DNA of 38,612 nucleotides from Candidatus Bathyarchaeota archaeon (GTDB lineage Archaea; Thermoproteota; Bathyarchaeia; TCS64), in NCBI GenBank assembly GCA_043826455.1, contig JBDRQD010000076.1, forward strand, positions 1 to 38,612. The letters are read 5' to 3'. The notes below the pieces were generated by a model, which worked only from the letters and a program-made list of their open reading frames with translations, did not search any database and was not told the origin of the DNA. This document shows, piece by piece, positions 11,000 through 34,825 of this stretch. Each line of letters starts with the position of its first letter. Position 1 is the first letter of the stretch. Made by a program: the position numbers and the translations under genes.

Positions 11000-11010
11000 C
11001 TCATATCACC

Positions 11011-11934: not shown

Positions 11935-11955
11935 GTCTAATCCTCCTGTTAGCAT

Positions 11956-12086
11956 AATATGCCGACGTGTTTTTAGAATTTTTTATCAACTGTTATTAAA
12001 TCTAGCTATTTTTACATAAATGTTGTAAATGCTATAAATAATATACTACCATGTAGCAAGATAATAGATCCAAAGGAGAGAACACG
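11956..12086. promoter_or_regulatory. AT-rich divergent promoter region for metFV and cdhABCDE
   Basis: Strongly AT-rich against GC-rich flanks. Contains TATA-like TATAAATA, inverted repeat TTTACA-N7-TGTAAA (12011-12029) and an AAGGAG RBS before cdhA. Confidence 0.7.
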
Positions 12087-14432
12087 TTGGCGAACAAGAA
12101 CGTCAAGCTCAAGTTCGATGAGCTCTCATCCGCCCTCGGCACCTTCAAGGGCCTAGAGATCCAGATAGGCCGAATCGTGGACGAGGAGTGGGAGGAGCCC
12201 ATGGGACCCACACCCATGCCCTCGGTGGGCACCCTAAGGAGCTGGGACAGGAAGCTCCTAAACCGTTACAAGCCCTTCTACATGCCCTTATGCGACCTGT
12301 GCTGTCTATGCACCTTCGGTAAGTGCGACCTTACAGGCGACAAGAAGGGCGCCTGCGGCCTGACCATGGCTGGCCAGCAGTCCAGAATAGTACTCATAGC
12401 CTGCTGCATAGGCGCATCCACCCACGCCGCCCACGGCCGTCACATGCTCAACCACCTCATGGAGGAGTACGGCAGAGATACACCCCTTGAGGTTGCGCTG
12501 AACACCAACGTCGAGGCGCCCCACGTCCGGCTGGTGTGCGGCATCAAGCCCAAGACCATAGGGGACCTGGAGGAGGCTCTGGACTACGTGGAGACCCAGA
12601 TAGTGCAGCTGGTGGCCGCCGCTCACACCGGGCAGGAGGGAGACAACATCGACTTCGAGTCCAAGGCCTTCCACGCGGGGATGCTGGACCACGTGGCCCT
12701 GGAGGTGGCCGACCTCATGCAGATAGCTACGCTCGGCCTGCCCAAGGGAGACCCCGAGGCGCCCCTGGCTGAACTGGGCTATGGCACCATCGACGCGAAG
12801 AAGCCGGTGATCATGTGCATAGGCCACAACGTGCTGCCCAGCGTGGACATCATCGACTACCTCATGAACCACGACCTCTTCGACCAGGTGGAGGTGGGCG
12901 GCCTCTGCTGCACAGCCCACGACATGAGCAGATACAATAAGCGCTCCAAGATCGTCGGCCCCATCTCGTGGCAGCTCAAGTTCATCAAGTCCGGGATACC
13001 CGACCTCATAGTAGTGGACGAGCAGTGCATCCGCACAGACGTAATGGACCAGGCCCGGGAGATCGGCGTCCCCGTCCTCGCGGCCAGCGAGAAGAGCTGC
13101 CTGGGCCTACCCGATAGGACCCACGACCCGGCCGAGGCCGTGATAGAGGATCTGGTGTCGGGGAAGACGCCGGGCGCCCTGGTCATCGAGCCCAGGAAGG
13201 TGGGCGAGATAGCGGTGAAGACCGCCATGGCTGTCAGGAAGAGGCGCGGAGAAAACAAGCTGGTTAACCTGGGCGAGCTATCGGAGATCGCTGCCAAGTG
13301 CCGTACATGTGTGGAGTGTGTCAGGGCGTGTCCCAACATGCTGCCCATAATGGACGCCATGGTGGCCGCCAAGGAGGGTGACTATGGGCCGCTGGCTGAG
13401 CTCAACGACCTGTGCGTGGGCTGCGGCCGATGCGAGAGCGCCTGCCCGGTGGATCTACCCATCGTGACCATGATCACACAGGCGTCCAAGGATGAGCTCA
13501 TCAACGAGAAGTACCCCATAAGGGTGGGCAGGGGAGCCATCCAGGACGTGGAGATCAGAGAGGTGGGCAGCCCCATTGTCTTCGGGGAGATACCCGGTGT
13601 CGTGGCCCTGGTGGGCTGCGCCAACTATCCGGCGGGGGGCGGCGACGTGGCCGCAATGGCCGAGGAGTTCCTGAAGCGCCGCTTCATCGTGGTGGCCTCT
13701 GGGTGCTCAGCCATGAACATAGCCATGACCAAGGACGAGGACGGCCAGAACCTCTACGAGAAGTACCCGGGCAACTTCGACGCCGGGGGCCTGGTGAACG
13801 TGGGAAGCTGCGTCTCTAACGGCCACATAACGGGGGCCGCCATCAAGATCGCTAACATCTTCGCTAAGCGTCCCCTGAGGGGTAATTACGAGGAGATAGC
13901 AGACTACATCTATAATCGTGTCGGTGCTGTGGGTGTCGCTTGGGGCGCCATGAGCCAGAAGGCGGCTGCCATAGCATCCGGCTGCTGGAGGCTGGGGATA
14001 CCTGTGGTTGTTGGCCCACACGGCTCCAAGTACCGGCGAATGCTCCTGGGTGACAAGGACAAGGAGGAGGACTGGAAGGTCTACAATGCCAGGGATGGCG
14101 AGGAGGTGTACGTGGGACCGGTTCCCGAGCACCTCTTCTACGCGGCCGAGACCCTGGAGGAGGCCTTGGTACTCATCTCCAAGCTGGTCATGAGGCCCAA
14201 CGACACCAGCAAGGGCCGCGCGGTGAAGCTCAGCCACTACATAGACCTCTACAAGAAGCATTACGGGGCAATGCCCGACGACCTACACCTGTTCGTCCGC
14301 CGCGGCCAGGACATACCCTTCACCATGAAGGATGAGATAGTGAAGATACTGGAGGCGAAGGACTGGGTGGAGGACAGGATAGCGTCACCCGACCCGACCC
14401 TGCTTGACAGGATGGTGAGGAGGCGAGAGTGA
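12087..14432 (+). CDS. cdhA: CO dehydrogenase/acetyl-CoA synthase complex alpha subunit (Ni-CODH, archaeal type)
   Basis: CDLCCLCTFGKC, IGHNV, GLCCTAHD, DEQC, two ferredoxin motifs (CRTCVECVRAC and CVGCGRCESAC), GCANYP and GSCVSN. Confidence 0.98.
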   Translation: MANKNVKLKFDELSSALGTFKGLEIQIGRIVDEEWEEPMGPTPMPSVGTLRSWDRKLLNRYKPFYMPLCDLCCLCTFGKCDLTGDKKGACGLTMAGQQSRIVLIACCIGASTHAAHGRHMLNHLMEEYGRDTPLEVALNTNVEAPHVRLVCGIKPKTIGDLEEALDYVETQIVQLVAAAHTGQEGDNIDFESKAFHAGMLDHVALEVADLMQIATLGLPKGDPEAPLAELGYGTIDAKKPVIMCIGHNVLPSVDIIDYLMNHDLFDQVEVGGLCCTAHDMSRYNKRSKIVGPISWQLKFIKSGIPDLIVVDEQCIRTDVMDQAREIGVPVLAASEKSCLGLPDRTHDPAEAVIEDLVSGKTPGALVIEPRKVGEIAVKTAMAVRKRRGENKLVNLGELSEIAAKCRTCVECVRACPNMLPIMDAMVAAKEGDYGPLAELNDLCVGCGRCESACPVDLPIVTMITQASKDELINEKYPIRVGRGAIQDVEIREVGSPIVFGEIPGVVALVGCANYPAGGGDVAAMAEEFLKRRFIVVASGCSAMNIAMTKDEDGQNLYEKYPGNFDAGGLVNVGSCVSNGHITGAAIKIANIFAKRPLRGNYEEIADYIYNRVGAVGVAWGAMSQKAAAIASGCWRLGIPVVVGPHGSKYRRMLLGDKDKEEDWKVYNARDGEEVYVGPVPEHLFYAAETLEEALVLISKLVMRPNDTSKGRAVKLSHYIDLYKKHYGAMPDDLHLFVRRGQDIPFTMKDEIVKILEAKDWVEDRIASPDPTLLDRMVRRRE

Positions 14433-14977
14433 TGGCGGCCAAGATGAACACCGGGCAGACCGCGGAGATCGCTGGCCCCAAGAAGGCCAACATCTTCCCC
14501 AACACCGACGTGGCCGCTAACCTCATAGCAAAAGCCAAGCGGCCTCTGCTCGTCATAGGGTCAGAGTCAACCACCGTGAAGACCAACGACGGCGACCTAT
14601 TGGACTCAGCCATCAGGGCCATGAAGAACAGGAAGCTGTCCGTGGTGGCCACGGGCCACCTGGTGGGCGAGTTCAGGAAGAGGGGCGTAGACAAGGCCTA
14701 CAGCATGTCAATATTTGTACTGGGTAAGCACCTTAGCGACCCGGAGTGGAAAGGCTTCGACGGCAAGGGGCCCTACGACGCCGTGGTCTTCGCCGGGTTC
14801 GCCTACTACATGGAGTGGCTGGTGGAGTCCGGCCTGAAGAACTTCAGCAAGCTCAGGACCATCAGCCTGGAGAGGAGCTACCAGCCTAACGCCGAGTGGA
14901 GCCTGGGCTGGATGCCGGAGCCCGACTGGAGGGAGACAATAGATAAGATAGTTTCACGTTTAGAGGAGGGAAAGTAA
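14429..14977 (+). CDS. cdhB: CODH/ACS complex epsilon subunit
   Basis: AKRPLLVIG, DPEWKGFDGKGPYD and YQPNAEWS, positioned between cdhA and cdhC. Confidence 0.95.
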   Translation: MMAAKMNTGQTAEIAGPKKANIFPNTDVAANLIAKAKRPLLVIGSESTTVKTNDGDLLDSAIRAMKNRKLSVVATGHLVGEFRKRGVDKAYSMSIFVLGKHLSDPEWKGFDGKGPYDAVVFAGFAYYMEWLVESGLKNFSKLRTISLERSYQPNAEWSLGWMPEPDWRETIDKIVSRLEEGK

Positions 14978-14978
14978 A

Positions 14979-16412
14979 GTGTCGATGTTTGATGACATCC
15001 CCGTGGATGTAGGCATCATCTACGAGGGTGAAAGGATCAGGGGCCGCGACATGCAGATCGAGCTGGGGGGCCCCAGAGAGACCTACAAGTTCGAGCTGGT
15101 CCAGGCCAAGCCGATGGACGAGATCGAGGACGGCAAGATGACCATCATAGGGAAGGACATCCATGAGCTCCCCGAGGGCACCAACACGCCCTTCGGCATG
15201 GTCATCGAGGTGGCCGGCGCCGAGATAGAGAAGGACCTGGAGGGCGTCATAGAGCGCAGGCTCCACGAGTACGTCAACTTCATAGAGGGCTTCATGCACC
15301 TGAACCAGCGCTACGACATACAGATGAGGCTCAGCAAGAAGAGCTTCCAGAAGGGCTTCAACAGCTTCAAACACCTGGGCACGGTGCTGATGCGCCTCTA
15401 CAAGAGCGAGATGTCCTTCACGGAGAAGATGCAGATCACCTTCATCACCGACCCCGCCAAGGTGGAGGAGTGGTACACCAAAGCCATGGAAATATACGAG
15501 GCCAGGGACGCCCGAGCACGCGGCATGAGCGACGACGAGGTGGAGGTCTTCTACGGGTGCAGCCTCTGCCAGAGCTTCGCCCCCACCCACCTGTGCGTCA
15601 TCACGCCTCAACGGTACGCCAACTGCGGAGCCATCAGCTGGTTCGACGGCAGGGCCACCTCCAAGGTGGACCCCAAGGGGCCCGTGTTCGAGATATCCAA
15701 GGGCGAACTCATAGACACCGTGAAGGGCGAGTACAAGGACGTCAACAGGGTCATAAGGGAAAAGAGCCTGGGAGAGATCGAGCGCGTACAGCTGTACACC
15801 GCCTTCGACTACCCCCACACAAGCTGCGGCTGCTTCGAGGGCTGCGCCTTCTACATCCCCGAGGTGGACGGCTTCGGCGTAGTCCACCGCAACTACAAGG
15901 GCCAGACAGTCAACGGCCTGGACTTCGTCACCATCAGCGACCTGACAGCCGGCGGCAGGCAGGTGGACGGGTTCCACGGCCTCAGCATAGAGTACATGAG
16001 GAGCCCCAAGTTCCTCCAGGCCGACGGCGGCTGGGACCGGGTCGTCTGGATGCCCAAGGACATCATGGAAAGGATCAAGGAGTATATGCCCCCCGAGATA
16101 GTGCCCAAGATAGCGACCGAGGAGAGCGTCCCGGACCTGGACGGCCTGAAGAAGTGGCTCCGGGAGAAGAGCCACCCCATAGTAGGGACCTGGAAGGCCG
16201 AGGCTGAGAAGCCCGCCCCTGCGGCGGCGCCCCAGCCGGGGCAGCAGCAGGTGCCCATGACCGGGTTCACCGTGCCCACCTTGGAGCTCCCCGCCAGCGC
16301 GTTACCCATGTCCGCGTTGCAGGGTCTGCCCCCGGGGATGTCCATCAAGATCATCCTGAAGAACGCCAAGATCAAGGCAGAGCGGGTCATCATCAAGACG
16401 GTGAAGGAGTAG
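14979..16412 (+). CDS. cdhC: Acetyl-CoA synthase (CODH/ACS beta subunit, A-cluster)
   Basis: YEGERIR, FYGCSLCQSFAPTHLC, CGAISW and PHTSCGCFE. Start could be ATG 14985. Confidence 0.98.
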   Translation: MSMFDDIPVDVGIIYEGERIRGRDMQIELGGPRETYKFELVQAKPMDEIEDGKMTIIGKDIHELPEGTNTPFGMVIEVAGAEIEKDLEGVIERRLHEYVNFIEGFMHLNQRYDIQMRLSKKSFQKGFNSFKHLGTVLMRLYKSEMSFTEKMQITFITDPAKVEEWYTKAMEIYEARDARARGMSDDEVEVFYGCSLCQSFAPTHLCVITPQRYANCGAISWFDGRATSKVDPKGPVFEISKGELIDTVKGEYKDVNRVIREKSLGEIERVQLYTAFDYPHTSCGCFEGCAFYIPEVDGFGVVHRNYKGQTVNGLDFVTISDLTAGGRQVDGFHGLSIEYMRSPKFLQADGGWDRVVWMPKDIMERIKEYMPPEIVPKIATEESVPDLDGLKKWLREKSHPIVGTWKAEAEKPAPAAAPQPGQQQVPMTGFTVPTLELPASALPMSALQGLPPGMSIKIILKNAKIKAERVIIKTVKE

Positions 16413-16417
16413 CCGCC

Positions 16418-17746
16418 ATGACTAAACCAGACAAGCTCACTCTGCCCATCAGCCGGGACCTCCTGGAGCGGCTGGCCAAGTTCCAGGAGATAGAGCTGGA
16501 GGACGTGGAGATGGAGCTGGACGAGATAGAGCTAGACATCGAGGGCGGCGGAGGAGGCATGCATCCCGCCCAGATGGCGCGGCTGGCCTACGAGTTCTCC
16601 CTCATACGGGACTCGGCCAGCAGGATCACCCAGGTCCTGGGAGGCTACACGCCCGTGGGGATGCCTCAGCCCATGCAGAGCCAGCAGGCCGCGGCTCTCG
16701 CCCCCATGGCTCCAGCGCCGAAGCCTACGAAGCTGATCCCAGCCAAGGTCACCATACCCAAGGCCGACTACGTGGGGCAGGTGGTGGAGGTGAAGCTGGG
16801 GGCCACCAAGGCCGAGGGAGGGACAAGGTCAAGGTCCTACACAATCGGAGGCGAGAAGGCCCCCGCCTTCTACAACTTCCAGGCGCCGCCCCCCAACAAG
16901 CCCATAATAGCCCTGGACGTCTTCGACTGGCCCAAGGTGCGCCTGTCCAAGGCGGTGAAGATGCACTTCGAGGAGGTCCTGGAGGACACCGGGGAGTGGG
17001 CCCGGGTGTGCGTCGAGAAGTTCGGCGCAGAGATGGTTAACCTCCACCTGCTCACCATCGACCCCCTCATCGAGGACGCGCCCCCCAAAGCGGCCGTCAA
17101 GAAGGTGGAAGAGGTGCTGGAGGCAGTGGACGTGCCCATAAGCATAGGCGGCTGCGGTGACCCCAAGAAGGACCTGGCTGTCTTCACGGCCATCTCGGAG
17201 AAGATCGAGGGGGAGCGGCTGCTCATCAACTCGGTGACCCTGGACATGGACATAGAGAAGTCGGCCAAGCTCATCAAGGACCACGACAACTGCGTCATCG
17301 CCTTCACCAGCATGGACGTGAACAAGGCCAGGGAGCTCAACAGGAAGCTCTACGACTTCGTCCCCAAGGAGCAGATAATCATGGACACCACCACCGCTGC
17401 CCTGGGCTACGGCCTGGACTACGCCTTCACCGTCATGGAGAGAAGCCGCCTGGCCGCCCTCAAGGGCGACCCCGAGCTCAACCACCCCCTCTCATCAGGC
17501 ACCACCAACGCGTGGGCCGCCAGGGAGAGCTGGATGAAGATGGGCCCAGAGTTCAGCCCCAGGGAGCTGAGAGGCCCCATATGGGAGACCATCACAGGGC
17601 AGACGCTGCTCCTGGCCGGCGTAGACTACTTCATGATGATGCACCCGGCCGCGGTCAACGCCCTAAAGACCATGATCGACGGCCTCATGAAGGGCGACAA
17701 GCCCACGGACCCGGCTGACTGGGTCACGCTGAAGGTGGGAGGCTAA
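16418..17746 (+). CDS. cdhD: Corrinoid Fe-S protein small subunit (CODH/ACS delta)
   Basis: EVKLGATKAEGGTR, ALGYGLDYA, NAWAARESW, RGPIWE and MMMHP. Confidence 0.96.
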   Translation: MTKPDKLTLPISRDLLERLAKFQEIELEDVEMELDEIELDIEGGGGGMHPAQMARLAYEFSLIRDSASRITQVLGGYTPVGMPQPMQSQQAAALAPMAPAPKPTKLIPAKVTIPKADYVGQVVEVKLGATKAEGGTRSRSYTIGGEKAPAFYNFQAPPPNKPIIALDVFDWPKVRLSKAVKMHFEEVLEDTGEWARVCVEKFGAEMVNLHLLTIDPLIEDAPPKAAVKKVEEVLEAVDVPISIGGCGDPKKDLAVFTAISEKIEGERLLINSVTLDMDIEKSAKLIKDHDNCVIAFTSMDVNKARELNRKLYDFVPKEQIIMDTTTAALGYGLDYAFTVMERSRLAALKGDPELNHPLSSGTTNAWAARESWMKMGPEFSPRELRGPIWETITGQTLLLAGVDYFMMMHPAAVNALKTMIDGLMKGDKPTDPADWVTLKVGG

Positions 17747-17750
17747 GAGG

Positions 17751-19163
17751 ATGCCCGCGAAAGAACTGAGCCCCATTGAGATATACAGGAGCCTACCAGG
17801 CACCAACTGCAAGGAGTGCGACGAGGCCAACTGCATGGCCTTCGCCGCCAAGCTGGTGAACAGGGAGGCTACCCTGGAGGAGTGCAAGCCCCTCCTGGAC
17901 CCGGGCAAGGCTGAGGCCTACAACAAGCTCTGGGCCCTTCTGAAGCCGGCCGTGAAGGCCGTGGAGGTGGGCACAGGGGACAACGCTTTGACCCTGGGGG
18001 GCGAGTACGTCCTCTACAGGCACGAGTTCACCTACTTCCACCAGCCCGCTATAGCCGTGGACGTGAGCGACGAGATGGGGGACGAGGAGTTCGAGACCCG
18101 GATGCACGTCCTCAACGACTTCAACTACCACTACATAGGCATGGAGCTCACCCTGGACATGGCGTCAGTCCGGTCCAGCAGCGGAAACGCTGCCCGGTTC
18201 AGGGACGCCGTGAAGAAGGCCGGGGAGCTGACCCGCAAACCCATGATGCTCTGCGCCCTTGACCCGACTGTGATGGAGGCCGGGCTCCAGATAGCAGCCG
18301 ACAGGAGACCCCTCATATACGCGGCCACCAAGGACAACTGGCAGATGATGGCCGAGCTGGCCCTCAAGTACGGGTGCCCCCTGGTGGCGTCCTCGCCCCT
18401 GGACCTGGACGGCCTCAAGAGCCTGGCCCTCACCCTAGAAGCCTACGGTGTCAAGGACATTGTGCTCGACCCGGGAACCCAGCCCAACAGGTACATGTCC
18501 ACCAACCTTGACGCTTTCACCGTCCTCAGGTGGGACGCCATCAACGAGGACGAGGAGGGCCTCGGCTACCCCCTCCTGGGGGTGCCCATGGCGGCGTGGA
18601 CTGAGGCCTCCGAGGACCCGGTGCTCAGCGAGTGGAGCGAGGCCCAGCTTGCCGCGGCCCTCATCACCCGGTTCACCGACATGATAGTGGTCCACGGCAT
18701 CAGCGGCTGGGCCCTGCTGCCCCAGGTGTTCCTTAGGAGCAACCTGTACACGGACCCCAGGAAGCCGGTCTCAGTGGAGGCTGAGCTGATGACCATAGGG
18801 ACTCCGGACGAGAACTCGCCGGTGCTGCTCACTACCAACTTCGCCCTCACCTACTACACAGTGGCCTCCGACATCGAAGGCGACAAGATAAACTGCTACC
18901 TGCTGGTGGTGGACAGCGAGGGCATGAGCGTGGAGAGCGCCGTGGCCGGCAGGAAGATGACCGCCGAGACCATCGCTGAGGCCCTCACCAACTTCAAGGT
19001 GGGGGAGAAGGTGAAGCACCGCAGCCTCATCATACCCGGCAGGGCGGCCAGGCTGAGCGGCGAGGTGCAGGAGCTGTCCGGCTGGAACGTGGCCGTGGGG
19101 CCCCTGGACTCCTCGGGTATAGCCTCCTACATCTCGGACAAGTGGAACCCTTACCCCGAGTAG
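17751..19163 (+). CDS. cdhE: Corrinoid Fe-S protein large subunit (CODH/ACS gamma)
   Basis: LPGTNCKECDEANCMAFA, YTDPRKPVSVE, TTNFALTYYTV and IIPGRAARLSGE. Confidence 0.97.
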   Translation: MPAKELSPIEIYRSLPGTNCKECDEANCMAFAAKLVNREATLEECKPLLDPGKAEAYNKLWALLKPAVKAVEVGTGDNALTLGGEYVLYRHEFTYFHQPAIAVDVSDEMGDEEFETRMHVLNDFNYHYIGMELTLDMASVRSSSGNAARFRDAVKKAGELTRKPMMLCALDPTVMEAGLQIAADRRPLIYAATKDNWQMMAELALKYGCPLVASSPLDLDGLKSLALTLEAYGVKDIVLDPGTQPNRYMSTNLDAFTVLRWDAINEDEEGLGYPLLGVPMAAWTEASEDPVLSEWSEAQLAAALITRFTDMIVVHGISGWALLPQVFLRSNLYTDPRKPVSVEAELMTIGTPDENSPVLLTTNFALTYYTVASDIEGDKINCYLLVVDSEGMSVESAVAGRKMTAETIAEALTNFKVGEKVKHRSLIIPGRAARLSGEVQELSGWNVAVGPLDSSGIASYISDKWNPYPE

Positions 19164-20180
19164 CTACACCCATTTTATGTATCCGCTGGGGGAGCCCGCT
19201 CCCCCAACAACAACCTGGTTAGAGGGGTTTTTGCCCCTCACCTCTTCCAATACGCCTCGGAACTCCACGCGGTCCCCCGCCTCAAAGACGCCACCGTAGA
19301 GCCCCTCGTAGCTGACAAGCCTGGTAACCTCGGCGCTGACACCTTCAAGCTCCGCGTCTCTTACGGCGTAAACAGCTGGCAGGTAGATGGACTCGCCATC
19401 ATCAACCACTGTCGCTGTGCCCCGGACCTCCCCCCGTCTGCGGTATGTGTTATCGCCGTAGCTCTCGGTGATCTCCTTGTCCGTTCTGGTGGGGTGGATG
19501 GAGAAGTAGGTGCTCTCATAGTACCCGTAGTTCCACCTGGTTTTAGCCACCCGCCGCAGCTCATCCACCGTCAGAGGGAACTTGCTAGCCCTCTCCCGAC
19601 ACCAGGCGTCCACCTCCTCTGGGGAAGGGGGCTGGATGCGGTCCCCCTCCTCCCTGAGCCTGGCCATGGCGTCCCTCAGCCTCTCTGAGGGCTTCCTGCC
19701 GTACACCGTCAGGTCTATGTCCGAGAAGTCGGGGTTGTGGATTCCCGTGAGCAGTGAGCCCGTCACGCCCAGCTCCTTGACCCCCGCCTCACCTGTCAGC
19801 AGGTCAGCTAGACCCAGAAGCCTCTCCTCTAATGGGTCCCGGGCTCCCCTGGACCTGATCTCCCTCAGCCCCCTCTGGGCCCAGAAGTACTTCTTGACGC
19901 TTGCCCTGGGGACCCAGGAGACGGTGAAGCCCCGGACCGGGCAATCGATCAGATACTGGGGAAGGTTGCGCCTCAGGTACTCGTAGGTGTTCTCCACCTG
20001 AGCCACGTGATAGAAGGGCAGAGCCCGGGAGTACCGAGTCGTCCCGCGGCCCCACTTACCCACGGGGGCCGTGACGTACTTCAGGTACGCCGTGTACCCG
20101 TCCGGCGGGTGCAGGTACCCAACAACGCAGAAGAGGTACCCCTCCGCGGTCTCCACGAAGTCCCTGTCCTTAGGCTTCAA
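19164..20180 (-). CDS. Archaeal predicted nucleotidyltransferase (Pol-beta superfamily, COG1665-like), paralog 1
   Basis: GVTGSLLTG...SDIDLTVYG nucleotidyltransferase motif, N-terminal DFVET..G..F.V.GY.HP...AYLKY, and C-terminal OB-like GDRVEFRGVLEEV. Begins 4 nt after the rimK-like stop. Confidence 0.8.
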   Translation of the reverse strand: MKPKDRDFVETAEGYLFCVVGYLHPPDGYTAYLKYVTAPVGKWGRGTTRYSRALPFYHVAQVENTYEYLRRNLPQYLIDCPVRGFTVSWVPRASVKKYFWAQRGLREIRSRGARDPLEERLLGLADLLTGEAGVKELGVTGSLLTGIHNPDFSDIDLTVYGRKPSERLRDAMARLREEGDRIQPPSPEEVDAWCRERASKFPLTVDELRRVAKTRWNYGYYESTYFSIHPTRTDKEITESYGDNTYRRRGEVRGTATVVDDGESIYLPAVYAVRDAELEGVSAEVTRLVSYEGLYGGVFEAGDRVEFRGVLEEVRGKNPSNQVVVGGAGSPSGYIKWV

Positions 20181-20184
20181 AGGC

Positions 20185-21063
20185 TCACCGGCTCAGCAAT
20201 GATAGGACGTGGCTGACAACGGCCTCAGTGATGTCCACGTCGGTCACTGTCTGGAGGCCCTCCCAGCCCGGGGTGCTGTTAAGCTCAACCACGTAGGCCT
20301 CCCCCGTCTCCGAGACTATGACGTCCACGCCCGTGTACTCCAGGTTTAGGGCCTCCGCCGCCCTGAGGCTCATCTCCGTCACCTCGGCGTCAGGCTTGTA
20401 GGGCTTGGCCTTGCCTCCGCCGGATATGTTGGTCTTCCAGCCCTGGGCCACGCGGCGCATGGAGGCCGTCACCTGTCCTCCTATGACGAAGACTCTGAGG
20501 TCCTCCCCGGGGTGATGTATGAACTTCTGGAGGTAGTAGACGCTCTTGGTCATCTCCAGGGCCCTGAGGACCCTGTGGGCCACATCGGGGTCGGAGACCC
20601 TGGTTATCCCCATTCCCAGACTGCCGAAGAGGGGCTTCACCACCACGTCTCCCCCCAGCTCCTGAAATCCCTTCATGGCCTCTGTGAAGCTCTCGGTGAC
20701 GATGGTCCTGGGTGTCCTGATGCCTGCGTCCTCCAGCAGCGCCGATGTGTAGTACTTGTCCACGGTCCTCTCGATGCTCAGGGCCGGGTTCACCACCAGC
20801 ACTCCCATGTCCTCCAGCCTGTGGAGGGCGTCCATCCTGTAGAAGACCTGCTCCGCTGAGCCGCCAGGGACGCGTCGGACGATTACGGCGTCATAGTCGT
20901 CCACCCCGTAGCCCTTCACCGAGAGCCGGGGCACGCCGCCTATCTCTGACCTGAACCTGGTGACGGGGAGGAGGTAGGCCTCGGCTCCCCTCCTCCTGAG
21001 CTCCTTGAGGAGCCCCCGTATGTGCCACTCGTCCGCGTCTGAACCGATTACTCCTACCTTCAA
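20185..21063 (-). CDS. mptN: RimK-family ATP-grasp alpha-L-glutamate ligase (MptN/Orf5-like; methanopterin or methanofuran glutamylation)
   Basis: GGSAEQVFYRMDALHRL, DKY, VVKPLFGSLGMGI, DLRVFVIG, WKTNISGG and ELNSTPGW, directly downstream of fwdC. The substrate is inferred from context only. Confidence 0.8.
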   Translation of the reverse strand: MKVGVIGSDADEWHIRGLLKELRRRGAEAYLLPVTRFRSEIGGVPRLSVKGYGVDDYDAVIVRRVPGGSAEQVFYRMDALHRLEDMGVLVVNPALSIERTVDKYYTSALLEDAGIRTPRTIVTESFTEAMKGFQELGGDVVVKPLFGSLGMGITRVSDPDVAHRVLRALEMTKSVYYLQKFIHHPGEDLRVFVIGGQVTASMRRVAQGWKTNISGGGKAKPYKPDAEVTEMSLRAAEALNLEYTGVDVIVSETGEAYVVELNSTPGWEGLQTVTDVDITEAVVSHVLSLLSR

Positions 21064-27314: not shown

Positions 27315-27617
27315 CTACACGGACTTCCTGTCCATGTAGTCCACCACCAGACCCTCCTTGGTCAGCTCAAATATGACGCCGTCCTTCCCCTGCCTCCTCT
27401 CCACGCAGAACCCGTACTCCAGGAGCCTCACGTGCCAGTCCAGGGACTTGACATCCAGCCCGGTGGCCGATGAGAGGGCCTCCAAGGTCCTGTGCCCCTC
27501 CTTCATGGCTCTAAGGATGTCTCTCCTCACAGGACTGTTGATTGCTCGTAGGTACCTGCGGTGCCTCTCCTTGGTGTCCTCCATGGAGTCGGACACGGTC
27601 TTGCTCTTGTCAGACAA
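27315..27617 (-). CDS. ArsR-like winged helix-turn-helix protein
   Basis: LRAINSPVRRDILRAM...LSSATGL....LDWHVRLLE.G.....FELTKEG pattern. Confidence 0.75.
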   Translation of the reverse strand: MSDKSKTVSDSMEDTKERHRRYLRAINSPVRRDILRAMKEGHRTLEALSSATGLDVKSLDWHVRLLEYGFCVERRQGKDGVIFELTKEGLVVDYMDRKSV

Positions 27618-27677: not shown

Positions 27678-28187
27678 CTACTCGGGGAGGGCGATGAACC
27701 TCTTGACCCTCATCTGCTTCAAGGGGTCCGAGATCTGCTCCCTCTGGGGGTGCTCAGTGTCCAGGATGAGCACAGTGTCGAAGCCCTCCTTCTCGCCGGC
27801 GACGGCTATGAACTGGCCTCCCACCAGCTTCTTGCTTGAGGCCACGGCGGCCACCTCCATGGCGGCCTTCACACCGGACCCGAACATCATGAGGGTCTCC
27901 CTCATGGCCCTGTCGTCCTGGATTGGGAGACTGGCCTTCTCCACCGGCACCACGTTCAGCTTCTTCATGTCCTTCTTGGTGTCATCGTCGTAGGTGAACT
28001 CGGTGACGCTGACCACCTGGACCTGCTTACCGAGGACCTCCGCCAGCTTCAGGGCGGCCTTCCCCTTGTGGCTGGCTATCACCACCTTTGACGCCCCCTC
28101 GGGAGAGGTGTGCTTCTTCACGGCTTCGAAGACCACGCCGGTCTTCGTCTTCTTGTTCACGTACAGGATGCTGCTATCTGCGTCCAA
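27678..28187 (-). CDS. Pyruvate-kinase C-terminal (alpha/beta)-like domain protein, COG1751-like
   Basis: KVVIASHKGKAALKLAE, ETLMMFGSGVKAAMEVAAVA and IAVAG...GFDTVLIL resemble archaeal PK_C-like proteins. Confidence 0.65.
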   Translation of the reverse strand: MDADSSILYVNKKTKTGVVFEAVKKHTSPEGASKVVIASHKGKAALKLAEVLGKQVQVVSVTEFTYDDDTKKDMKKLNVVPVEKASLPIQDDRAMRETLMMFGSGVKAAMEVAAVASSKKLVGGQFIAVAGEKEGFDTVLILDTEHPQREQISDPLKQMRVKRFIALPE

Positions 28188-28766: not shown

Positions 28767-29714
28767 TCATGGCCGCCACCCGGTGAGAAGGAGTACGAAC
28801 AGGGATGCAGCCGTCAGGTCAGCCGTTGTACCCGGGTTCAGCGCGCCATTCGTCCTCTGTAGTTCCTCGTCCAGTTCAATGAGCATGCATCTGCCACGGT
28901 CCGACGCCGCGCCCCCGGCGTCAAGGATGCTCTGAGCCCTCTCACTTACAGTCCTCGCAGCTTCTGGGCCCCTCTTCCGCTGGATCAGGGAGTCGGGGTG
29001 CTCCGAGAGTAGGCAGAGGAACGTGTTTACCACAGAGTCGTTGACGCTTACCCCCCTAGACAGATGCTCCGCGAGGTGCCCATACCCCTCTGAGACCACT
29101 ATGTTGAACCCTGTGACCCACTCGCTGCATATGGAGTCTCGCCCAGAGCAGGTCTCGAAGATGTCATGCGGCGTGATGCCATGCTTCAAGATGTAGTCCA
29201 GTGACACTGGGTCTGTGACGTCCAGCTCATCCACGTCGCCCAGGTTCTCCCTCGACATGGCCATACCAATGGCCTTGTAGATGTCCACGGCGTCCTGTGG
29301 AGCCGCAGCCCCAATGATCTCCCTTATGGAGGCTCTGAGCTTAAAGGGTTCAACCACGCCACCCTCAGCTACGGCCCCCGCGGCGGCAGCTATGGGTGAG
29401 AACAGGAGGATCACACCAAGGTGGACGTTGCCGCCCCTCTGCCACGCCAGCATCTCCTCGACGGCGCCGAGGATCGACCCACCCATGCCCAGGCCGCCCC
29501 AGTCTCCTCCCCCAGCCTTGATCAAACTGCTCCGGCCAGCCAGATCCCTCATCCAGGGCATCATGGAGACGCTGGCCGCCAGAAAATGCTCGTAGCTGGT
29601 GCCCGGAAAGTCCCTTAGGCGGTGGACGTTTCCCGGTTTGGGGTACGCCGAGACCTCTAGGAGGGCCGCGAGGGACGCGCACCGCCCCACCAAGTCACCC
29701 ACTCCGCCTTCCAT
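28767..29714 (-). CDS. citG: CitG-family triphosphoribosyl transferase (Orf7-like)
   Basis: LLEVSAYPKPGNVHR, NVHLGVILL, PDSLIQRKRG and NPGTTADLTAA. ATG 29714 follows GGAGG (ORF track 29729). Confidence 0.9.
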   Translation of the reverse strand: MEGGVGDLVGRCASLAALLEVSAYPKPGNVHRLRDFPGTSYEHFLAASVSMMPWMRDLAGRSSLIKAGGGDWGGLGMGGSILGAVEEMLAWQRGGNVHLGVILLFSPIAAAAGAVAEGGVVEPFKLRASIREIIGAAAPQDAVDIYKAIGMAMSRENLGDVDELDVTDPVSLDYILKHGITPHDIFETCSGRDSICSEWVTGFNIVVSEGYGHLAEHLSRGVSVNDSVVNTFLCLLSEHPDSLIQRKRGPEAARTVSERAQSILDAGGAASDRGRCMLIELDEELQRTNGALNPGTTADLTAASLFVLLLTGWRP

Positions 29715-29741
29715 GTGTGTCCCCTCCATAAATCGTTGCTC

Positions 29742-29753
29742 ACTTTATAAAGT
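29742..29753. promoter_or_regulatory. Palindromic, potentially bidirectional TATA box
   Basis: ACTTTATAAAGT is a perfect palindrome centred almost exactly between the divergent starts at 29714 and 29779. Confidence 0.6.
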
Positions 29754-29778
29754 TCCACCGGGCCAAGATAATACTTGC

Positions 29779-30780
29779 ATGGACCGTCTCTCAGGCTTCA
29801 CCGAGGGGGACTACCTCAGGACCGTCGAGGGCCTGTTCTTCGCCGTGAAGGGCGGCGTTCACCCAGACAACATGGTGATAGCATACCTCCGCTACATCCC
29901 TGACCCCCGGGGGGGAAGGTCTAAGGGAGGAGTCCACTATCGTAGGGTGAGCGACATAGGCGAAACCACGAGGTACCTGGAGGAGCACTACCCCATGTAC
30001 CTCAACCACATTAGGAGGCTCAACATGACCCTGCAATCTGTCCCTGTTCACCGCGTAGCCGGCGTGTACAAGCCCAGGGAGAGACTAGGAGAGATTCTTG
30101 AAAACCCGGCCACGCTCCTTGAGAAGATTTTAGTCCGGTTCGCGGAGGCTATCGCCGACGAGAGCCGCGTCCCCTTAAGCGGCTTCGGCGTATCCGGCTC
30201 GCTTCTTATAGGGCTGGACATTGAGGGCTCCGACGTTGATCTGAACGTCTACGGGCTTGATGAGGGGCGGAAAGTCTACGAGGCCCTAAAGAAGCTGAGA
30301 AGAACCGGGGGATGGGTGTCGCCCTACGACGACGAGACCGTGAAAAATGTGCTATTCTCTCGGTGGGGCGACCTGGGGCGCCTCAAGGAGCTGGCTGAGG
30401 TGGAGAAGCGGAAGGTCCTACACGGCAGGGTCATGGGCACGGACTACTTCGTGAGGCTTCTGCGAGACGAGGAAAGCTATCTTTCTAAGCCGATGGACGT
30501 CGTGACACTCAAAGCCAGGGTCGCGGACTCGTCTGGGTCCATTTATACGCCGTGCACATACAGAGTCGATGAAGTGGAAACGCTGTCTGATCCCATCCAG
30601 GGGGAAATCACTGAGCTCGTGAGCTACCGGGGCAAGTTCACGGAGCAGGCCGAGGCCGGGGACTGGGTCAGGGTGAGGGGCACCCTCGAGGAGGTCCAGG
30701 GTCCAGATGGTGCCCATTTCAGGGTCATCCTTGGGGGAGAGGGAGACTACCTGCTGCCCCTGTTTTTGGATAATTTTTAG
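29779..30780 (+). CDS. Archaeal predicted nucleotidyltransferase (Pol-beta superfamily, COG1665-like), paralog 2
   Basis: GVSGSLLIG...SDVDLNVYG motif, colinear with paralog 1 along its length. The real start is ATG 29779, since the ORF-track extension to 29599 overlaps citG. Confidence 0.8.
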   Translation: MDRLSGFTEGDYLRTVEGLFFAVKGGVHPDNMVIAYLRYIPDPRGGRSKGGVHYRRVSDIGETTRYLEEHYPMYLNHIRRLNMTLQSVPVHRVAGVYKPRERLGEILENPATLLEKILVRFAEAIADESRVPLSGFGVSGSLLIGLDIEGSDVDLNVYGLDEGRKVYEALKKLRRTGGWVSPYDDETVKNVLFSRWGDLGRLKELAEVEKRKVLHGRVMGTDYFVRLLRDEESYLSKPMDVVTLKARVADSSGSIYTPCTYRVDEVETLSDPIQGEITELVSYRGKFTEQAEAGDWVRVRGTLEEVQGPDGAHFRVILGGEGDYLLPLFLDNF

Positions 30781-30846
30781 TAAACCGTCGACGACTCTAT
30801 AGGGAACTGCCTGTTGGTATTTATAAAAGAAGCAGAGCTGCTGAGC

Positions 30847-31461
30847 ATGCTGCACAAGTCGGGCTTCACAAGGGACGGAATAGTCGAAGTCATACTGGTT
30901 ACCAGGGGCGCTGATGGCTCAGTGAACGCCGCCGCCATGGGGGTGAAACTAACAGGAGACCTGCTTGAGATCAGGCCATATAAGACCAGTGAGACCTATA
31001 GGAACCTCAAATATGGCGGAGAGGCGGTGATAAACGTCACCCACGATCCGTACCTGTTTTTGGCGACGGCATTCAAGGACGAGGTCCCTGGACAGCCTCA
31101 GATGTGCGCTGACATGAGTCTCCAGGAGGCAGACTCGTGCATCTACGTGGAGGTCCAGGGCGAAGCCGGCTACTCAGACGCCCAGGCGTCGTTCAAGACT
31201 AAGCCCATCAAAACGGTGATAAAAAGGGAGCACCCCATCGTCTTTAGTAGGGGAAGAGCCGAGGCAATAGAGGCAGTGATCCACGCGACCAGAGTGAAGG
31301 TGTTCCAACTGCAGGGCAGGACAGGCGAGGTGCAGGCGCTGACCAGAAAGATAGCTGAGTGCGCGGAGACCGTGGGGCGGGTGTCGCCAGAGAACTCGCC
31401 CGAAAGCCGCGTCATAAACGAGCTAAGACAGATGATGAAGAACTGGGGGGTACCACTGTAG
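30847..31461 (+). CDS. DUF447-family protein (flavin-binding split-barrel-like), methanopterin biosynthesis-associated
   Basis: EVILVT...NAAAMGV, S.TYRNL, NVTHDP.LF and RGRAEAIEAVIHATR. ATG 30847 follows TTTATAAAA (30820-30828). Confidence 0.8.
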   Translation: MLHKSGFTRDGIVEVILVTRGADGSVNAAAMGVKLTGDLLEIRPYKTSETYRNLKYGGEAVINVTHDPYLFLATAFKDEVPGQPQMCADMSLQEADSCIYVEVQGEAGYSDAQASFKTKPIKTVIKREHPIVFSRGRAEAIEAVIHATRVKVFQLQGRTGEVQALTRKIAECAETVGRVSPENSPESRVINELRQMMKNWGVPL

Positions 31462-32411
31462 AGATCAGTTTAACCACGCCTTCAAGGCTTCAGTTCGGCA
31501 TAGTCGACATGCGGGGAGACCTGGGCAGGATCCACGGCAGCGTCGGCGTAGCCATCCAGCGTCCACGGCTCACCGTCAAGGCCGTTGAGAGCAGCGAGAC
31601 CCGGATCATTGGTGCGCGCTCCAGCAGGGCCAGCGACATCTTGAGCACCCTGATGAGAGACCACGGCATAACATCGGGTGTCCAGGTTGAGATACTGGAG
31701 GACATCCCGGAGCACACAGGCTTCGGCTCAGGGACGCAGCTAACCATAGCCCTGGGGACCATTTTATCCAAGATGTTCGACCTGGGGCTGACACCTCAAA
31801 GCATCGCGGAACGGATGGGCCGGAGCAGAGTATCCGGCATAGGCGCATACGCGTTCCTCGGCGGCGGCTTCATAGTGGACGGGGGCCACGCCTTGGAGAG
31901 GCGGGACTCCGTGCCGCCCCTCATATTCAGGCGAGACGTTCCCGAGGATTGGGTATTCGTGGTGGGCGTCCCCCGCATAAACCGGGGCGTCAGCGGTGAC
32001 AACGAGAAAGACGCCTTCAGGAGGCTGGGGCCTCCGCCTGCCCAGACAGTCGCAGAGGTGTCAAGGATAGTTCTGATCCAGTTGATCCCCTCCATCATCG
32101 AGGGGGACATCGAGAGGTTCGGTGACGCCATGACCAAGCTGGACTCCATGTTCGGCGACTACTGGCTGAAAGTCCAGGGAGGAAGGTACAGCCACCCCAG
32201 GATCGAGGAAGGCGTAAACTATCTGCTTGAGAACGGGGCCGTGGGGGCCGGCCAGAGCTCCTGGGGGCCGGCCTTCTACGGCCTAGTGGACGGGGAGGCT
32301 CAGGCCGATCAACTTGCCCGGAGCCTGTCCCGCTTCCTGAACACGGTGGGCGAGGGTCTGGCGTTCACCACCAAGGCTGACAACTTGGGCGCCCAAGTGA
32401 GTGTGAAATAG
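31458..32411 (+). CDS. mptG: Beta-ribofuranosylaminobenzene 5'-phosphate synthase (GHMP fold); start codon uncertain
   Basis: TPSRLQFG..D..G..GR..GSVG, IPEHTGFGSGTQL, RVSGIG..AF.GGGFIVDGG and GQSSWGP. The homologous region begins near 31458, but the only canonical start is GTG 31359. Confidence 0.9.
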   Translation, partial: VEISLTTPSRLQFGIVDMRGDLGRIHGSVGVAIQRPRLTVKAVESSETRIIGARSSRASDILSTLMRDHGITSGVQVEILEDIPEHTGFGSGTQLTIALGTILSKMFDLGLTPQSIAERMGRSRVSGIGAYAFLGGGFIVDGGHALERRDSVPPLIFRRDVPEDWVFVVGVPRINRGVSGDNEKDAFRRLGPPPAQTVAEVSRIVLIQLIPSIIEGDIERFGDAMTKLDSMFGDYWLKVQGGRYSHPRIEEGVNYLLENGAVGAGQSSWGPAFYGLVDGEAQADQLARSLSRFLNTVGEGLAFTTKADNLGAQVSVK

Positions 32412-32423
32412 GCGGGGCCTAGG

Positions 32424-33989
32424 ATGAGGGTTCTAGTCTTAACGGGGAAGCTCGCCGAGGAGGCCGTCAGGCGCACGGTCAAGGGATTGAGCGACGTGGA
32501 CGTGTTAGCTCTACCCGTGTCCGTCGCATCCTTCCTCACGCCCAGGTACGTGGCTGACGTTCTCGGCAAGATGAGCCTGGACCGCTACGGCATGATTCTC
32601 ACCCCTGGGACCGTCAGCGGCGACGTGTCCTGCGTGGAGGAGGCGACGGGCGTCCCAACATTCAAAGGGCCCGTCCACTTCGTTGACCTGCCCACGGTCC
32701 TGTCCTCAGACATCCAGTTATCGAAGACCGTTCCGGCCTCAGACTTCATCAGGGACCTGGCTGAGCAGAGAGCATCCGAGGAGATAGAGGCGGCTGAGCG
32801 TGACTGGGCTGACATCCTGAAGCTCAGAGGCGGGATCACTCTGGGTGAGGGCGCAAGGCGTCTACCTGTGAGCGACGGGCTCCCTATGAGGGTTATAGCG
32901 GAGGTGGTCAACGCCCCCACCCTCACACTCACGCAGATCGTGGACAGAGCCAAGTACTACCAGTCCCAGGGCGCCCAAGTAATCGATATAGGGATGCTGG
33001 CAGGCAACCCGAGGCCCGAGACCTTGGCACCCATCATCGACGCACTCAGAGACGCCGTGGACCTGCCCCTCAGCGTAGACACCCTGGACCCCTCAGAGAT
33101 CAGGGCAGCCGTTGACGCAGGCATCGACATGATACTCAGCGTCGACGCAGGCAACCTGGACGCGGCGGCGCCCCACATCGGCGACCAGGCTGTAGTCGTC
33201 CTCCCCACAGACATGAGCAGAGGCCACCTGCCCAGGACAGCCAGGAAGAGGGTTCACGCTCTAGCCCAGAACATTGAGAGAGCCAGGGAGCTGGGCCTCA
33301 ACAAGGTCGTCGGCGACCTGGTGGTGGAACCCCTCCTGAGGCCGGGGCTCCTCACGGCGCTGGAGAGCTACCGGCTCTTCAAGGATAACCACCCAGAGGT
33401 GCCGCTACTCTTCGGCATAGGCAACGCCACGGAGCTCATAGACGCGGACTCCACAGGGGTGAACGCGGCCCTGACGGCTTTGGCCCGCGAGGCTGGGGCC
33501 TGTATGCTCCACGTGCCGGAGTATAGCGTCAAGGCCAGGGGCAGCGTGGCTGAGGTGGTTCGTGCCTCCCGGATGATGTACGTGGCGGAGAGGAGGGGGT
33601 CTGTGCCCAAGGACCTGGGCCTCGACCTGCTGGTGCTGAAGGAGAAGCGTTGGAAGGAGGAGGCCTACGATTCGAGCCTTGAGTCGTCGGCGGAGGTGGT
33701 CCTGGGCTCAGAGATTGACGAGTATAAGCCTGACGAGGCGGGGTGGTTCAAGGTGCAGGTGGACCGGGGCGCCGGCAAGATCGTTGCTCTCCACTATCCC
33801 CCGGGGAGAGAAGAGCCGGCTACCATAGTCAAGGGGGGCGACGCCCGGGAGGTATACCAGACCATCATCAGGCTAGGCCTCGTCACCAGGCTGGACCACG
33901 TGGCGTACCTGGGTAAGGAGCTGACGAAAGCTTCCATCGCCCTCAGGCTGGGGCGATCATACCAGCAGGACGAGGACCTCTTCGACTAA
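32424..33989 (+). CDS. Dihydropteroate synthase-related protein (Orf20/MJ0107-like) with N- and C-terminal extra domains
   Basis: VLTGKLAE, LPVSVAS, VIAEVVNAP, GAQVIDIG, PLSVDTL, GIGNATELIDADSTGVNA, and C-terminal LDHVAYLGKEL.KA.IAL.LGRSYQQD. Confidence 0.88.
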   Translation: MRVLVLTGKLAEEAVRRTVKGLSDVDVLALPVSVASFLTPRYVADVLGKMSLDRYGMILTPGTVSGDVSCVEEATGVPTFKGPVHFVDLPTVLSSDIQLSKTVPASDFIRDLAEQRASEEIEAAERDWADILKLRGGITLGEGARRLPVSDGLPMRVIAEVVNAPTLTLTQIVDRAKYYQSQGAQVIDIGMLAGNPRPETLAPIIDALRDAVDLPLSVDTLDPSEIRAAVDAGIDMILSVDAGNLDAAAPHIGDQAVVVLPTDMSRGHLPRTARKRVHALAQNIERARELGLNKVVGDLVVEPLLRPGLLTALESYRLFKDNHPEVPLLFGIGNATELIDADSTGVNAALTALAREAGACMLHVPEYSVKARGSVAEVVRASRMMYVAERRGSVPKDLGLDLLVLKEKRWKEEAYDSSLESSAEVVLGSEIDEYKPDEAGWFKVQVDRGAGKIVALHYPPGREEPATIVKGGDAREVYQTIIRLGLVTRLDHVAYLGKELTKASIALRLGRSYQQDEDLFD

Positions 33990-34825
33990 CCGCTGAACCG
34001 GACCACCGTTATGGGGTGGTGCCTCACGGACTCCAGCATCTCCCATGTTACCCCCGTTAAGGACGTCTCCATCTCCCTGGACATGCTCCACACGGTCCTG
34101 CCGGCTCCTCGGCCACACAGCCTGTGGTGGAGTCTGGCCAGCCAGAGAGCCCTGTCGGGGTTCACACTGCTCCCGGACGCGGCTAGGGGCGTCTGCCGCG
34201 CCTGCAGCCTCAATACCTTCCCGATGATGAAAACCAGGAAGCCTCCGAGGTGCACGAGACCGGGGAACTCCACTCTCCTGGGGGCGATGTGGAGGTTCCT
34301 CCAGGAGTAGGTGGTGTCGCCGTCAACGATCATGACGGTGACCCGTTTACCTGTGCGCTCGCGGACTGCTTCCTGGATTTTAGACGCGACCTTAGTGGCG
34401 TCTCTCAGCGGTAAGCTGACGTATGAGTACGGGAGGTTGCTCGCGTCGATTCCCCCCTCGCTGTAGTGGCGCATGGACTGGGGGAGGCCGACAGTTCTTA
34501 GGGCCACCTGCTTGTGGGCGGCGCCCTCCTCCGCGGGGTAGTTCCTCAGGTTGACGATGGTCTGCTCCTTTAGCCCAGTGATAGTGCCGAGGGGGCCGCC
34601 CCACACTCGCCTAGTCCAGGGGCCTGCTAGGAGCCTGGCGACGTACCCCGGCTTCACCGCGGCCTCGTCAACCAAAAAGCCTGAGGCTGTGGATAGCGCC
34701 TTCTCGCTGACGATGATGATGTCTTCGTCCTCGACTAGTCCTCGGACCTTTTCAATGATCTCTGATGTGTAGTCTGTTCCCGGTCTCCAGTAGTGGGTCC
34801 TGATGCTGACGGCCTTGACCTTCAT
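33986..34825 (-). CDS. CofE-like (F420-0:gamma-glutamyl ligase family) protein
   Basis: YWRPG, IIVSEKALSTASG, EGGIDASNLP, VMIVDGD and PITVVR. The substrate is unknown. Confidence 0.75.
   Translation of the reverse strand: MKVKAVSIRTHYWRPGTDYTSEIIEKVRGLVEDEDIIIVSEKALSTASGFLVDEAAVKPGYVARLLAGPWTRRVWGGPLGTITGLKEQTIVNLRNYPAEEGAAHKQVALRTVGLPQSMRHYSEGGIDASNLPYSYVSLPLRDATKVASKIQEAVRERTGKRVTVMIVDGDTTYSWRNLHIAPRRVEFPGLVHLGGFLVFIIGKVLRLQARQTPLAASGSSVNPDRALWLARLHHRLCGRGAGRTVWSMSREMETSLTGVTWEMLESVRHHPITVVRFSG

Follow-up and report, generated by a model that had tools for sequence, protein, structure and literature searches.

A Bathyarchaeial gene block for methanopterin side-chain synthesis with a credible candidate for the ring-opening reductase

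Enzymes of the MptG family make beta-ribofuranosylaminobenzene 5'-phosphate (beta-RFA-P) from p-aminobenzoic acid (pABA) plus phosphoribosyl pyrophosphate (PRPP). Work by White in 1996 reportedly placed coupling, a ring-opening reduction stimulated by flavin mononucleotide (FMN) and coenzyme F420, and dephosphorylation between RFA-P formation and ribosylation. We know of no enzymes assigned to the steps from pterin coupling to finished methanopterin, and our literature search on the ribitol step found no enzyme assignment, though earlier proposals in older papers or supplements are possible. Here we describe a six-gene block in a 38,612-nucleotide stretch of DNA (contig JBDRQD010000076.1 of assembly GCA_043826455.1, Candidatus Bathyarchaeota archaeon; the whole stretch is hereafter the window), encoding a CitG-like protein, a nucleotidyltransferase, a DUF447 protein, MptG, a TIGR00284 protein resembling dihydropteroate synthase (DHPS) and a CofE-like paralog. 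The cluster is genuine and very probably serves a known cofactor, of the methanopterin type, and a role of DUF447 as the ring-opening reductase is a credible proposal.

That these genes are tied to methanopterin is already known in outline. The 'archaeal-like' island of methylotrophs for tetrahydromethanopterin (H4MPT) and methylofuran comprises mptG, orf5, orf7, orf19, orf20, afpA/dmrB, orf21 and orf22, and mutants in several island genes are said to lack the cofactor (a finding attributed to Chistoserdova, 2005). By gene order and elimination, DUF447 is probably orf19, on which, as on orf20, our literature search found nothing relevant. The island order is given as orf19-orf20-afpA-orf21-orf22 (PMC3615186), and Orf21, Orf22, Orf9 and the methylofuran ligase Orf5 are named as MfnE, MfnB, MfnF and MyfB, respectively (PMC8141765). 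In Azoarcus, genes for MptG, a CitG-like protein, a DUF6513/DHPS-like protein, DUF447 and a flavoprotein stand together as in our block, and Azospirillum has the same set minus the CitG-like and flavoprotein genes within the stretch read. We located 21 bacterial loci with the Azoarcus DUF447 as query, two broad DUF447 alignments having proved too divergent for a locus search. In 20 of them orf20 is the neighbour of DUF447, and dmrB (18), a CitG-like gene (13), folB (11) and mptG (2) also occur. Compared with the methylotroph island, the window adds the nucleotidyltransferase and the CofE paralog, neither of which was detected in the 21 bacterial loci, whereas the pathway type marked by folB is missing from the source genome, which has no FolE or FolK.

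Gene loss divides the block into modules. We searched 101 Bathyarchaeia genomes gene by gene (100 at 85% completeness or above, plus the source genome); DUF447 matched in 49, and two genomes with only matches of 25 bits or less were dropped, leaving 47. The other genes were found in 82 (mch), 77 (nucleotidyltransferase), 77 (CofE-like), 74 (CitG), 53 (TIGR00284), 48 (mptG), 19 (MptE) and 18 (MptA) genomes. DUF447 and mptG occur together in 46 genomes and alone in 1 and 2 (three mismatches; phi coefficient 0.94), DUF447 and TIGR00284 together in 47 and alone in 0 and 6 (phi 0.89); with CitG, the nucleotidyltransferase and mch, the phi of DUF447 is 0.47, 0.33 and 0.20. Among the 48 genomes without DUF447, mptG and TIGR00284, CitG is kept in 25, all with mch, and the nucleotidyltransferase in 29; CitG occurs in none of the 14 genomes that lack both this trio and mch. 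Losses are thus nested: the pterin head (MptA, MptE), then a core (mptG, DUF447, TIGR00284), then a tail (CitG, nucleotidyltransferase). Because the tail genes persist without the trio, their products probably act later, and DUF447, gained and lost with the core, should act after RFA-P synthesis and before ribosylation. A sample of 111 genomes from the phylum agrees, with a TIGR00144 match in all 33 DUF447 genomes, 24 of them outside the class. The profiled genomes are kin rather than independent samples, and their counts describe a pattern rather than a statistical test.

Our favoured explanation, to which we give slightly more than even weight, is that the block comprises two separable modules and that a one-carbon (C1) carrier of the methanopterin type receives its aryl-ribitol side chain from them. 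In the core, MptG would supply beta-RFA-P by the reaction known for its family, the TIGR00284 protein would join it to activated dihydropterin, and DUF447 with reduced FMN would convert the C-riboside into the open 1-deoxyribitol. The simplest mechanism would have the ring oxygen expelled by the aryl nitrogen, giving an aza-quinone-methide that then accepts a hydride. In the tail, a phosphatase would remove the phosphate before ribosylation, and then, by analogy with CitG/CitX, the CitG-like protein would add an alpha-ribosyl (tri)phosphate that the nucleotidyltransferase would transfer to 2-hydroxyglutarate. AfpA, encoded elsewhere, would reduce the dihydropterin, and the pterin head would probably be salvaged. 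The initial annotation had proposed that the block serves late methanopterin synthesis, which we find supported for the side chain; its further suggestion of a whole late pathway was too broad, as the block offers no candidate phosphatase or methylase (pterin methylases were not searched for) and AfpA lies elsewhere.

DUF447 matches PF04289, the N-terminal domain in Pfam, at 76.8 bits (cut-off 24), with a start at TTG 30814 or ATG 30847. Its predicted model (pLDDT 96) matches 2iml, 2nr4 and 2ptf at E-values of 1e-12 to 1e-14 (5.6e-14 for 2iml), and the titles of all three state bound FMN. The structures of the family, 2iml (A. fulgidus), 2nr4 (M. mazei MM1853), 2ptf (MTH_863) and 3b5m (R. baltica), share family membership by sequence with the window's protein, at 22-25% identity and fold TM scores of 0.5-0.7, and their titles give no function. 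The three homolog crystal structures show that the family binds FMN; the FMN-binding assay suggested in the initial annotation is therefore already answered for the family, and binding by the window's own protein is expected by analogy. Since DUF447 is a flavin split barrel with three FMN-bound homologs, the reductive step is its natural fit. Dihydropterin reduction, the other flavin-dependent step, is attributed to DmrX/AfpA/DmrB (PMC6193120). That step is already covered by an AfpA above cut-off on contig C18 of the source genome (236 bits against 192), which supports DUF447 for the ring opening. Together with its tracking of mptG, this leaves DUF447, as first proposed, the best candidate for the reduction, an assignment that rests on co-occurrence and fold and that we judge somewhat probable.

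Two further observations and a literature search concern these flavoproteins. Next after the AfpA gene comes one for a separate ferredoxin of the 2x[4Fe-4S] type, and the pair (C18:26489-27400) resembles a split DmrX. A second DUF447 match in the genome, on contig C77 (24.5 bits), reads as a flavin-reductase-like split barrel and was rejected. Among the papers listed for DUF447 we found no methanopterin role assigned in titles or abstract openings, with earlier proposals in older papers or supplements possible, and one paper ties the family to cannulae but gives no evidence (PMC13140500).

Several results weigh against this assignment. The shared ancestry of the genomes means that the phi values overstate the association, and co-occurrence puts DUF447 in the core module, not at a particular step. 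In the phylum sample, 8 of the 41 TIGR00144-positive genomes have no DUF447 (6 of these under cut-off). In Haloferax volcanii, DUF447 occurs with CitG and an mptG-like gene while TIGR00284 finds no match, and haloarchaea are held not to make methanopterin (PMC8305020). No conserved phosphatase appears among the neighbours of the 40 archaeal DUF447 regions described below, and the fold neighbours of DUF447 beyond its own family are plain flavin reductases.

These neighbours, NAD(P)H:flavin reductases, would suit an accessory flavoprotein that supplies reduced flavin or protects oxygen-labile dihydropterins, the ring being opened by another enzyme or by DUF6513/DUF4346. AfpA/DmrB genes do occur alongside it, in 9 of the 40 archaeal regions and in 18 of the 21 bacterial loci, and the two extra domains of the TIGR00284 protein have invariant residues and no known job. 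We consider such a role rather unlikely: DUF447 is lost almost strictly with mptG and not with AfpA-type genes, a separate flavin-reductase-like split barrel is encoded on contig C77, and of the residues E25, G43, R146 and E153, invariant among 81 diverse homologs, E25, R146 and E153 hint at a specific site for a substrate.

For synteny, we compared up to 20 kb around DUF447 in 40 of the 46 other genomes with clear matches, leaving out six with short contigs or contig ends. TIGR00284 is present in 37 regions and mptG in 31 (in 29 directly after DUF447), followed by the CitG-like (14), nucleotidyltransferase (14) and CofE-like (4) genes. Given the 37 regions with TIGR00284 and the 29 with adjacent mptG, the clustering exceeds chance. 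For the synteny survey proposed in the initial annotation, the coverage here is these 40 archaeal regions and the 21 bacterial loci; its six-gene cluster holds as a non-random grouping but not as one operon, since the CitG-like gene is divergent and the CofE-like gene ends an acsV-cooC-cooC run.

The same data bear on the order of the core reactions. Were DUF447 to reduce free RFA-P before coupling, giving 1-(4-aminophenyl)-1-deoxyribitol 5-phosphate for TIGR00284 to couple, one could account for its slightly higher phi with mptG (0.94) than with TIGR00284 (0.89), for its position directly upstream of mptG in 29 of 40 regions, and for the haloarchaea, which keep DUF447 and mptG-like genes without TIGR00284. 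This order nevertheless seems improbable to us, as bacterial DUF447 adjoins orf20 in 20 of 21 loci while mptG is present in just 2 of the 21, and the pathway is reported to run from coupling to reduction. As a separate observation, a Halobellus plasmid (L073:4842-9674) carries a mer-DUF447-mptG-metE-metE operon with npdG and no DHPS-like gene in that stretch.

The remaining core proteins are assigned with different confidence. MptG scores 190.6 bits against TIGR00144 (cut-off 113.5) and 225.4 bits against the equivalog NF040726, below its cut-off of 328. No ATG, GTG or TTG lies near the expected start, leaving an in-frame CTG at 31443, which overlaps the DUF447 end, or a GTG at 31359. Across 32 aligned sequences R24 is invariant and H12 is replaced by Q. 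The pABA loop of MTH0830 has Asp19 and Arg26 seven residues apart (PMC6787355), and D17 and R24 of our protein have the same spacing, a comparison by spacing with MTH0830 itself outside the alignment. The TIGR00284 protein matches its model over the full length (384 bits, cut-off 256.65) and falls below the cut-off of the FolP model TIGR01496 (38.6 against 162.6 bits). Its barrel keeps D219 and D298, has Ser239 in place of the DHPS Asn and a methyltransferase-like GxGN motif, and scores 52.6 bits as DHPS and 49.4 bits as methyl-tetrahydrofolate (methyl-THF) methyltransferase; the alignment to DHPS stops short of the C-terminal strands, and both DUF6513 and DUF4346 carry invariant residues. We presume this protein to be the pterin-RFA-P coupling enzyme.

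The source genome has no known route to the pterin head. The genome is 97.66% complete and has no match to MptA, MptD, MptE, FolE or FolK, nor to hidden Markov models of MptA, MptD and MptE built from Bathyarchaeia, so that no complete de novo methanopterin pathway is present and the block alone cannot make the cofactor by known chemistry. None of the 18 other genomes of its family has MptA or MptE. As 30 of 46 core-bearing genomes, the source genome included, lack both, the missing head is no assembly gap. When the open reading frames in the 40 regions were clustered, a single family proved enriched where MptE is missing. Its members are membrane proteins encoded directly after TIGR00284, some 3.3 kb away from DUF447, and they occur in 14 of the 27 MptE-negative loci (six families) and in 0 of 13 MptE-positive loci. 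The protein (for instance L053:6135-6908) is an energy-coupling factor (ECF) S component, 13 of the 14 members matching PF07155 and PF12822. In this it is like the FolT-type S components; this window and genome lack it. Members of the wider family are present in 72 of the 101 genomes but in none of the ten of family f9, all of which have MptE; paralogs stand beside citG, nucleotidyltransferase or mch genes in core-less genomes (G100, G085, G069, G035, G006). The ECF subunit after TIGR00284 in MptE-negative loci suggests pterin salvage, and the presence of FolC above cut-off without a folate pathway suggests folate uptake. That the head is salvaged is, in our estimation, a modestly favoured reading; our literature search on salvage and MptA/D/E found nothing relevant.

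Against salvage stand several results. The source genome has no member of the TIGR00284-following ECF family, none of its six PF12822 matches is identifiable as a pterin importer, and 10 of the 30 MptE-negative core genomes, all of family f1, lack the family as well. One genome (G073) carries both MptE and the ECF subunit beside TIGR00284, 7 of 19 MptE genomes hold some family member, and salvage does not explain how, with neither MptE nor FolK, activation of the pterin would proceed. That the ECF clade (support 99 in a quick tree) is specific to methanopterin was a weakened proposal, as the clade includes proteins from mch-less genomes with unrelated neighbours.

The missing importer in the source genome and in the ten f1 genomes would suit a head made de novo by unrecognised, non-orthologous enzymes. 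In such a scheme, coupling could be by a metallo-beta-lactamase on contig C48 (188457-189440), which we take to resemble MJ0301, instead of by TIGR00284, whose Ser239 and GxGN motif depart from DHPS; MJ0301 is reportedly the coupling enzyme proposed by Xu in 1999. We hold de novo synthesis to be unlikely, because MptA and MptE are lost jointly (phi 0.97), because what is enriched at MptE-negative loci is a transporter subunit and not a substitute enzyme family, and because the C48 protein has neither an NCBIfam match nor pterin-related neighbours. Salvage itself could take a more elaborate form: a ladder of methanopterin auxotrophy in Bathyarchaeia, fed by ECF transporters, from de novo makers through core-plus-tail to tail-only salvagers. 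The block would then be a salvage pathway in which, there being no known pterin pyrophosphokinase in these genomes, TIGR00284 would move the pterin from imported folate or pteroate to RFA-P, as a reverse DHPS using pyrophosphate from MptG and freeing pABA for MptG; DUF447 would open the ring, and CitG and the nucleotidyltransferase would complete the tail through a triphosphoribosyl intermediate. We see this full scheme as a long shot; its pterin exchange would be compatible with a barrel whose likeness to DHPS and its likeness to methyl-THF methyltransferases are nearly the same.

Some other genes around these loci deserve record. ECF S-component paralogs lie beside cofE in 9 of 40 loci (L091, L092, L093, L095, L096, L102, L109, L112, L113), where salvage of F420 or F420-0 is possible, and related clade members stand beside folC-like genes in three genomes (G039, G080, G044). 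A winged-helix family (L103:10015-10494, L106, L107) recurs near ECF and nucleotidyltransferase genes and may be a regulator. DUF1464 (PF07318; L058:4166-5272) occurs in 5 of 13 MptE-positive and 0 of 27 MptE-negative loci and is a candidate for an early pathway step.

The tail proteins are read by analogy. In the CitG/CitX system, an alpha-linked triphosphoribosyl intermediate is made first and the phosphodiester next; like CitG/CitX and MdcB/MdcG, the block pairs a CitG-family gene with an adjacent gene for a putative Pol-beta-type nucleotidyltransferase, but the window has no citrate lyase or malonate decarboxylase genes and the block's nucleotidyltransferase has an oligonucleotide-binding (OB) fold. 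The CitG-like protein is single-copy in the genome and scores 51-59 bits against the CitG/MdcB equivalogs, below cut-offs of 272-282. It is probably the ribosyl transferase of the side chain. The nucleotidyltransferase has no Pfam or NCBIfam match, no match in the PDB by sequence or profile, and none by Foldseek at E-values up to 0.001. In its AlphaFold model (pLDDT 91), residues 108-229 match Pol X/TRAMP/TdT (Z 6.7-7.0) and residues 236-333 match OB folds (Z 7-8.6), all middling scores; G140-S141 and D152-x-D154 are invariant in 46 aligned homologs, and the window's second paralog is 32% identical. Among the matches listed, the two tail genes are within 500 bp in 33 of the 66 genomes having both and within 3 kb in 44. 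Of five DUF447-bearing bacterial genomes, CitG was found in all and the nucleotidyltransferase in one, there amid unrelated genes and outside an H4MPT context, and this rarity fits the description of the bacterial cofactor as free of phosphate and hydroxyglutarate (PMC8141765). We tentatively propose that the nucleotidyltransferase forms the phosphodiester.

Two points count against the tail assignments. Nucleotidyltransferase homologs occur in an unrelated setting on 21 Streptomyces plasmid records, which argues against specificity, and White's 1996 work is said to have named PRPP as the ribosyl donor, which would conflict with an ATP-using CitG. Our search for literature joining methanopterin with CitG or the nucleotidyltransferase found nothing relevant. 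On one such plasmid, from Streptomyces albus (L155:4168-8029), the homolog lies beside a histidine phosphatase and an aminoglycoside-phosphotransferase-like gene, and most Bathyarchaeia with this family carry 2-5 paralogs.

The CofE-like protein scores 45.3 bits against TIGR01916 (cut-off 180.65), and the true CofE of the genome is at C25:20816 (273 bits against 70 for the block paralog). The paralog keeps the Lys, Asp-x-Ser-Asn and Asp-x-Asp-Thr stretch of CofE, including the common K42, D127 and N130, and by inspection the analogous substrate feature is a phosphodiester-linked alpha-hydroxy acid. It was at first regarded as a local add-on (4 of 40 regions), a view revised on its presence in 77 of 101 genomes. 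As it is mostly single-copy, keeps these residues and is no more than 500 bp away from citG in 11 of 66 genomes, glutamylation of the methanopterin-type cofactor is a plausible role; within the source genome's family, it accompanies cooC genes instead of citG. The window's RimK/MptN-like gene, below the cut-off of the model for MptN (the H4MPT:glutamate ligase), could compete for this step, with methanopterin or methanofuran as substrate.

The features are listed in Table 1. All six open reading frames are intact and uninterrupted within 6 kb, with third-position G+C (GC3) of 0.71-0.81, and the family labels first given to them hold at the level given. Named homologs of their products come mainly from Bathyarchaeota; the Bathyarchaeial assembly has 7.21% contamination.

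Table 1. Coordinates of the block and of two related genes outside it, in nucleotides of the window.
Feature	Position	Strand	Details
CitG-like (orf7-type)	28767-29729	(-)	PF01874, 226 bits; candidate alpha-ribosyl-phosphate transferase
Divergent intergenic region, AT-rich, 49 bp	29730-29778		TTTATAAA at 29744
Nucleotidyltransferase-like, putative Pol-beta-type + C-terminal OB fold	29779-30780	(+)	Candidate for phosphodiester (2-hydroxyglutarate) formation
DUF447, FMN-binding split-barrel + helical C-terminal domain	30814-31461	(+)	PF04289; candidate ring-opening reductase
mptG, beta-RFA-P synthase family	31443-32411	(+)	TIGR00144; start codon uncertain, overlaps DUF447 stop
DHPS-like, TIGR00284/Orf20-type	32424-33989	(+)	DUF6513 + pterin-binding TIM barrel + DUF4346
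CofE-like paralog	33986-34825	(-)	PF01996, 70 bits; possible cofactor glutamyl ligase
RimK/MptN-like ligase, outside block	20185-21063	(-)	NF040720, 270 bits, under cut-off of 350
Second nucleotidyltransferase paralog, outside block	19164-20180	(-)	Matches NTP_transf_2 (PF01909)

The nucleotidyltransferase, DUF447, mptG and TIGR00284 genes form a plus-strand run with gaps of at most 33 bases. The intergenic region from which the CitG-like gene diverges is likely a promoter region shared with the nucleotidyltransferase gene; a sigma-70 scan, with 1 site against 1.3 expected, is uninformative on this. The CofE-like gene, the last of its minus-strand run, converges on the TIGR00284 gene with a 4-base overlap. 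The window also holds cdhABCDE, metVF, mch, fwdDBAC, ftr, two cooC and acsV, a gene content that calls for a methanopterin-type carrier. The RimK/MptN-like and second nucleotidyltransferase genes end the mch-fwdDBA-ftr-fwdC run. Genes of the metVF type for methylenetetrahydrofolate reductase (PF02219, DUF5981) are divergent from cdhABCDE (10364-19163), and with FolC in the genome, folate and methanopterin may both serve as C1 carriers. Between mch and the block lie a small helix-turn-helix gene (27315-27617) and a gene for a 169-residue protein without Pfam or NCBIfam match (27678-28187), the latter in the same place in four genomes of the genus.

In conclusion, what is new here is the nested order of loss and the finding that most Bathyarchaeia with the core are headless and probably salvage the pterin. 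The nested loss sorts the candidates, DUF447 with the core and the CitG-like protein and nucleotidyltransferase with the tail, and these are open to study as purified proteins or by gene knockouts in methylotrophs and methanogens that are tractable. Should two thirds of the core-bearing Bathyarchaeia be unable to make the pterin head, they would need neighbours to supply it, a dependence relevant to cross-feeding in sediments and to the difficulty of culturing these archaea.

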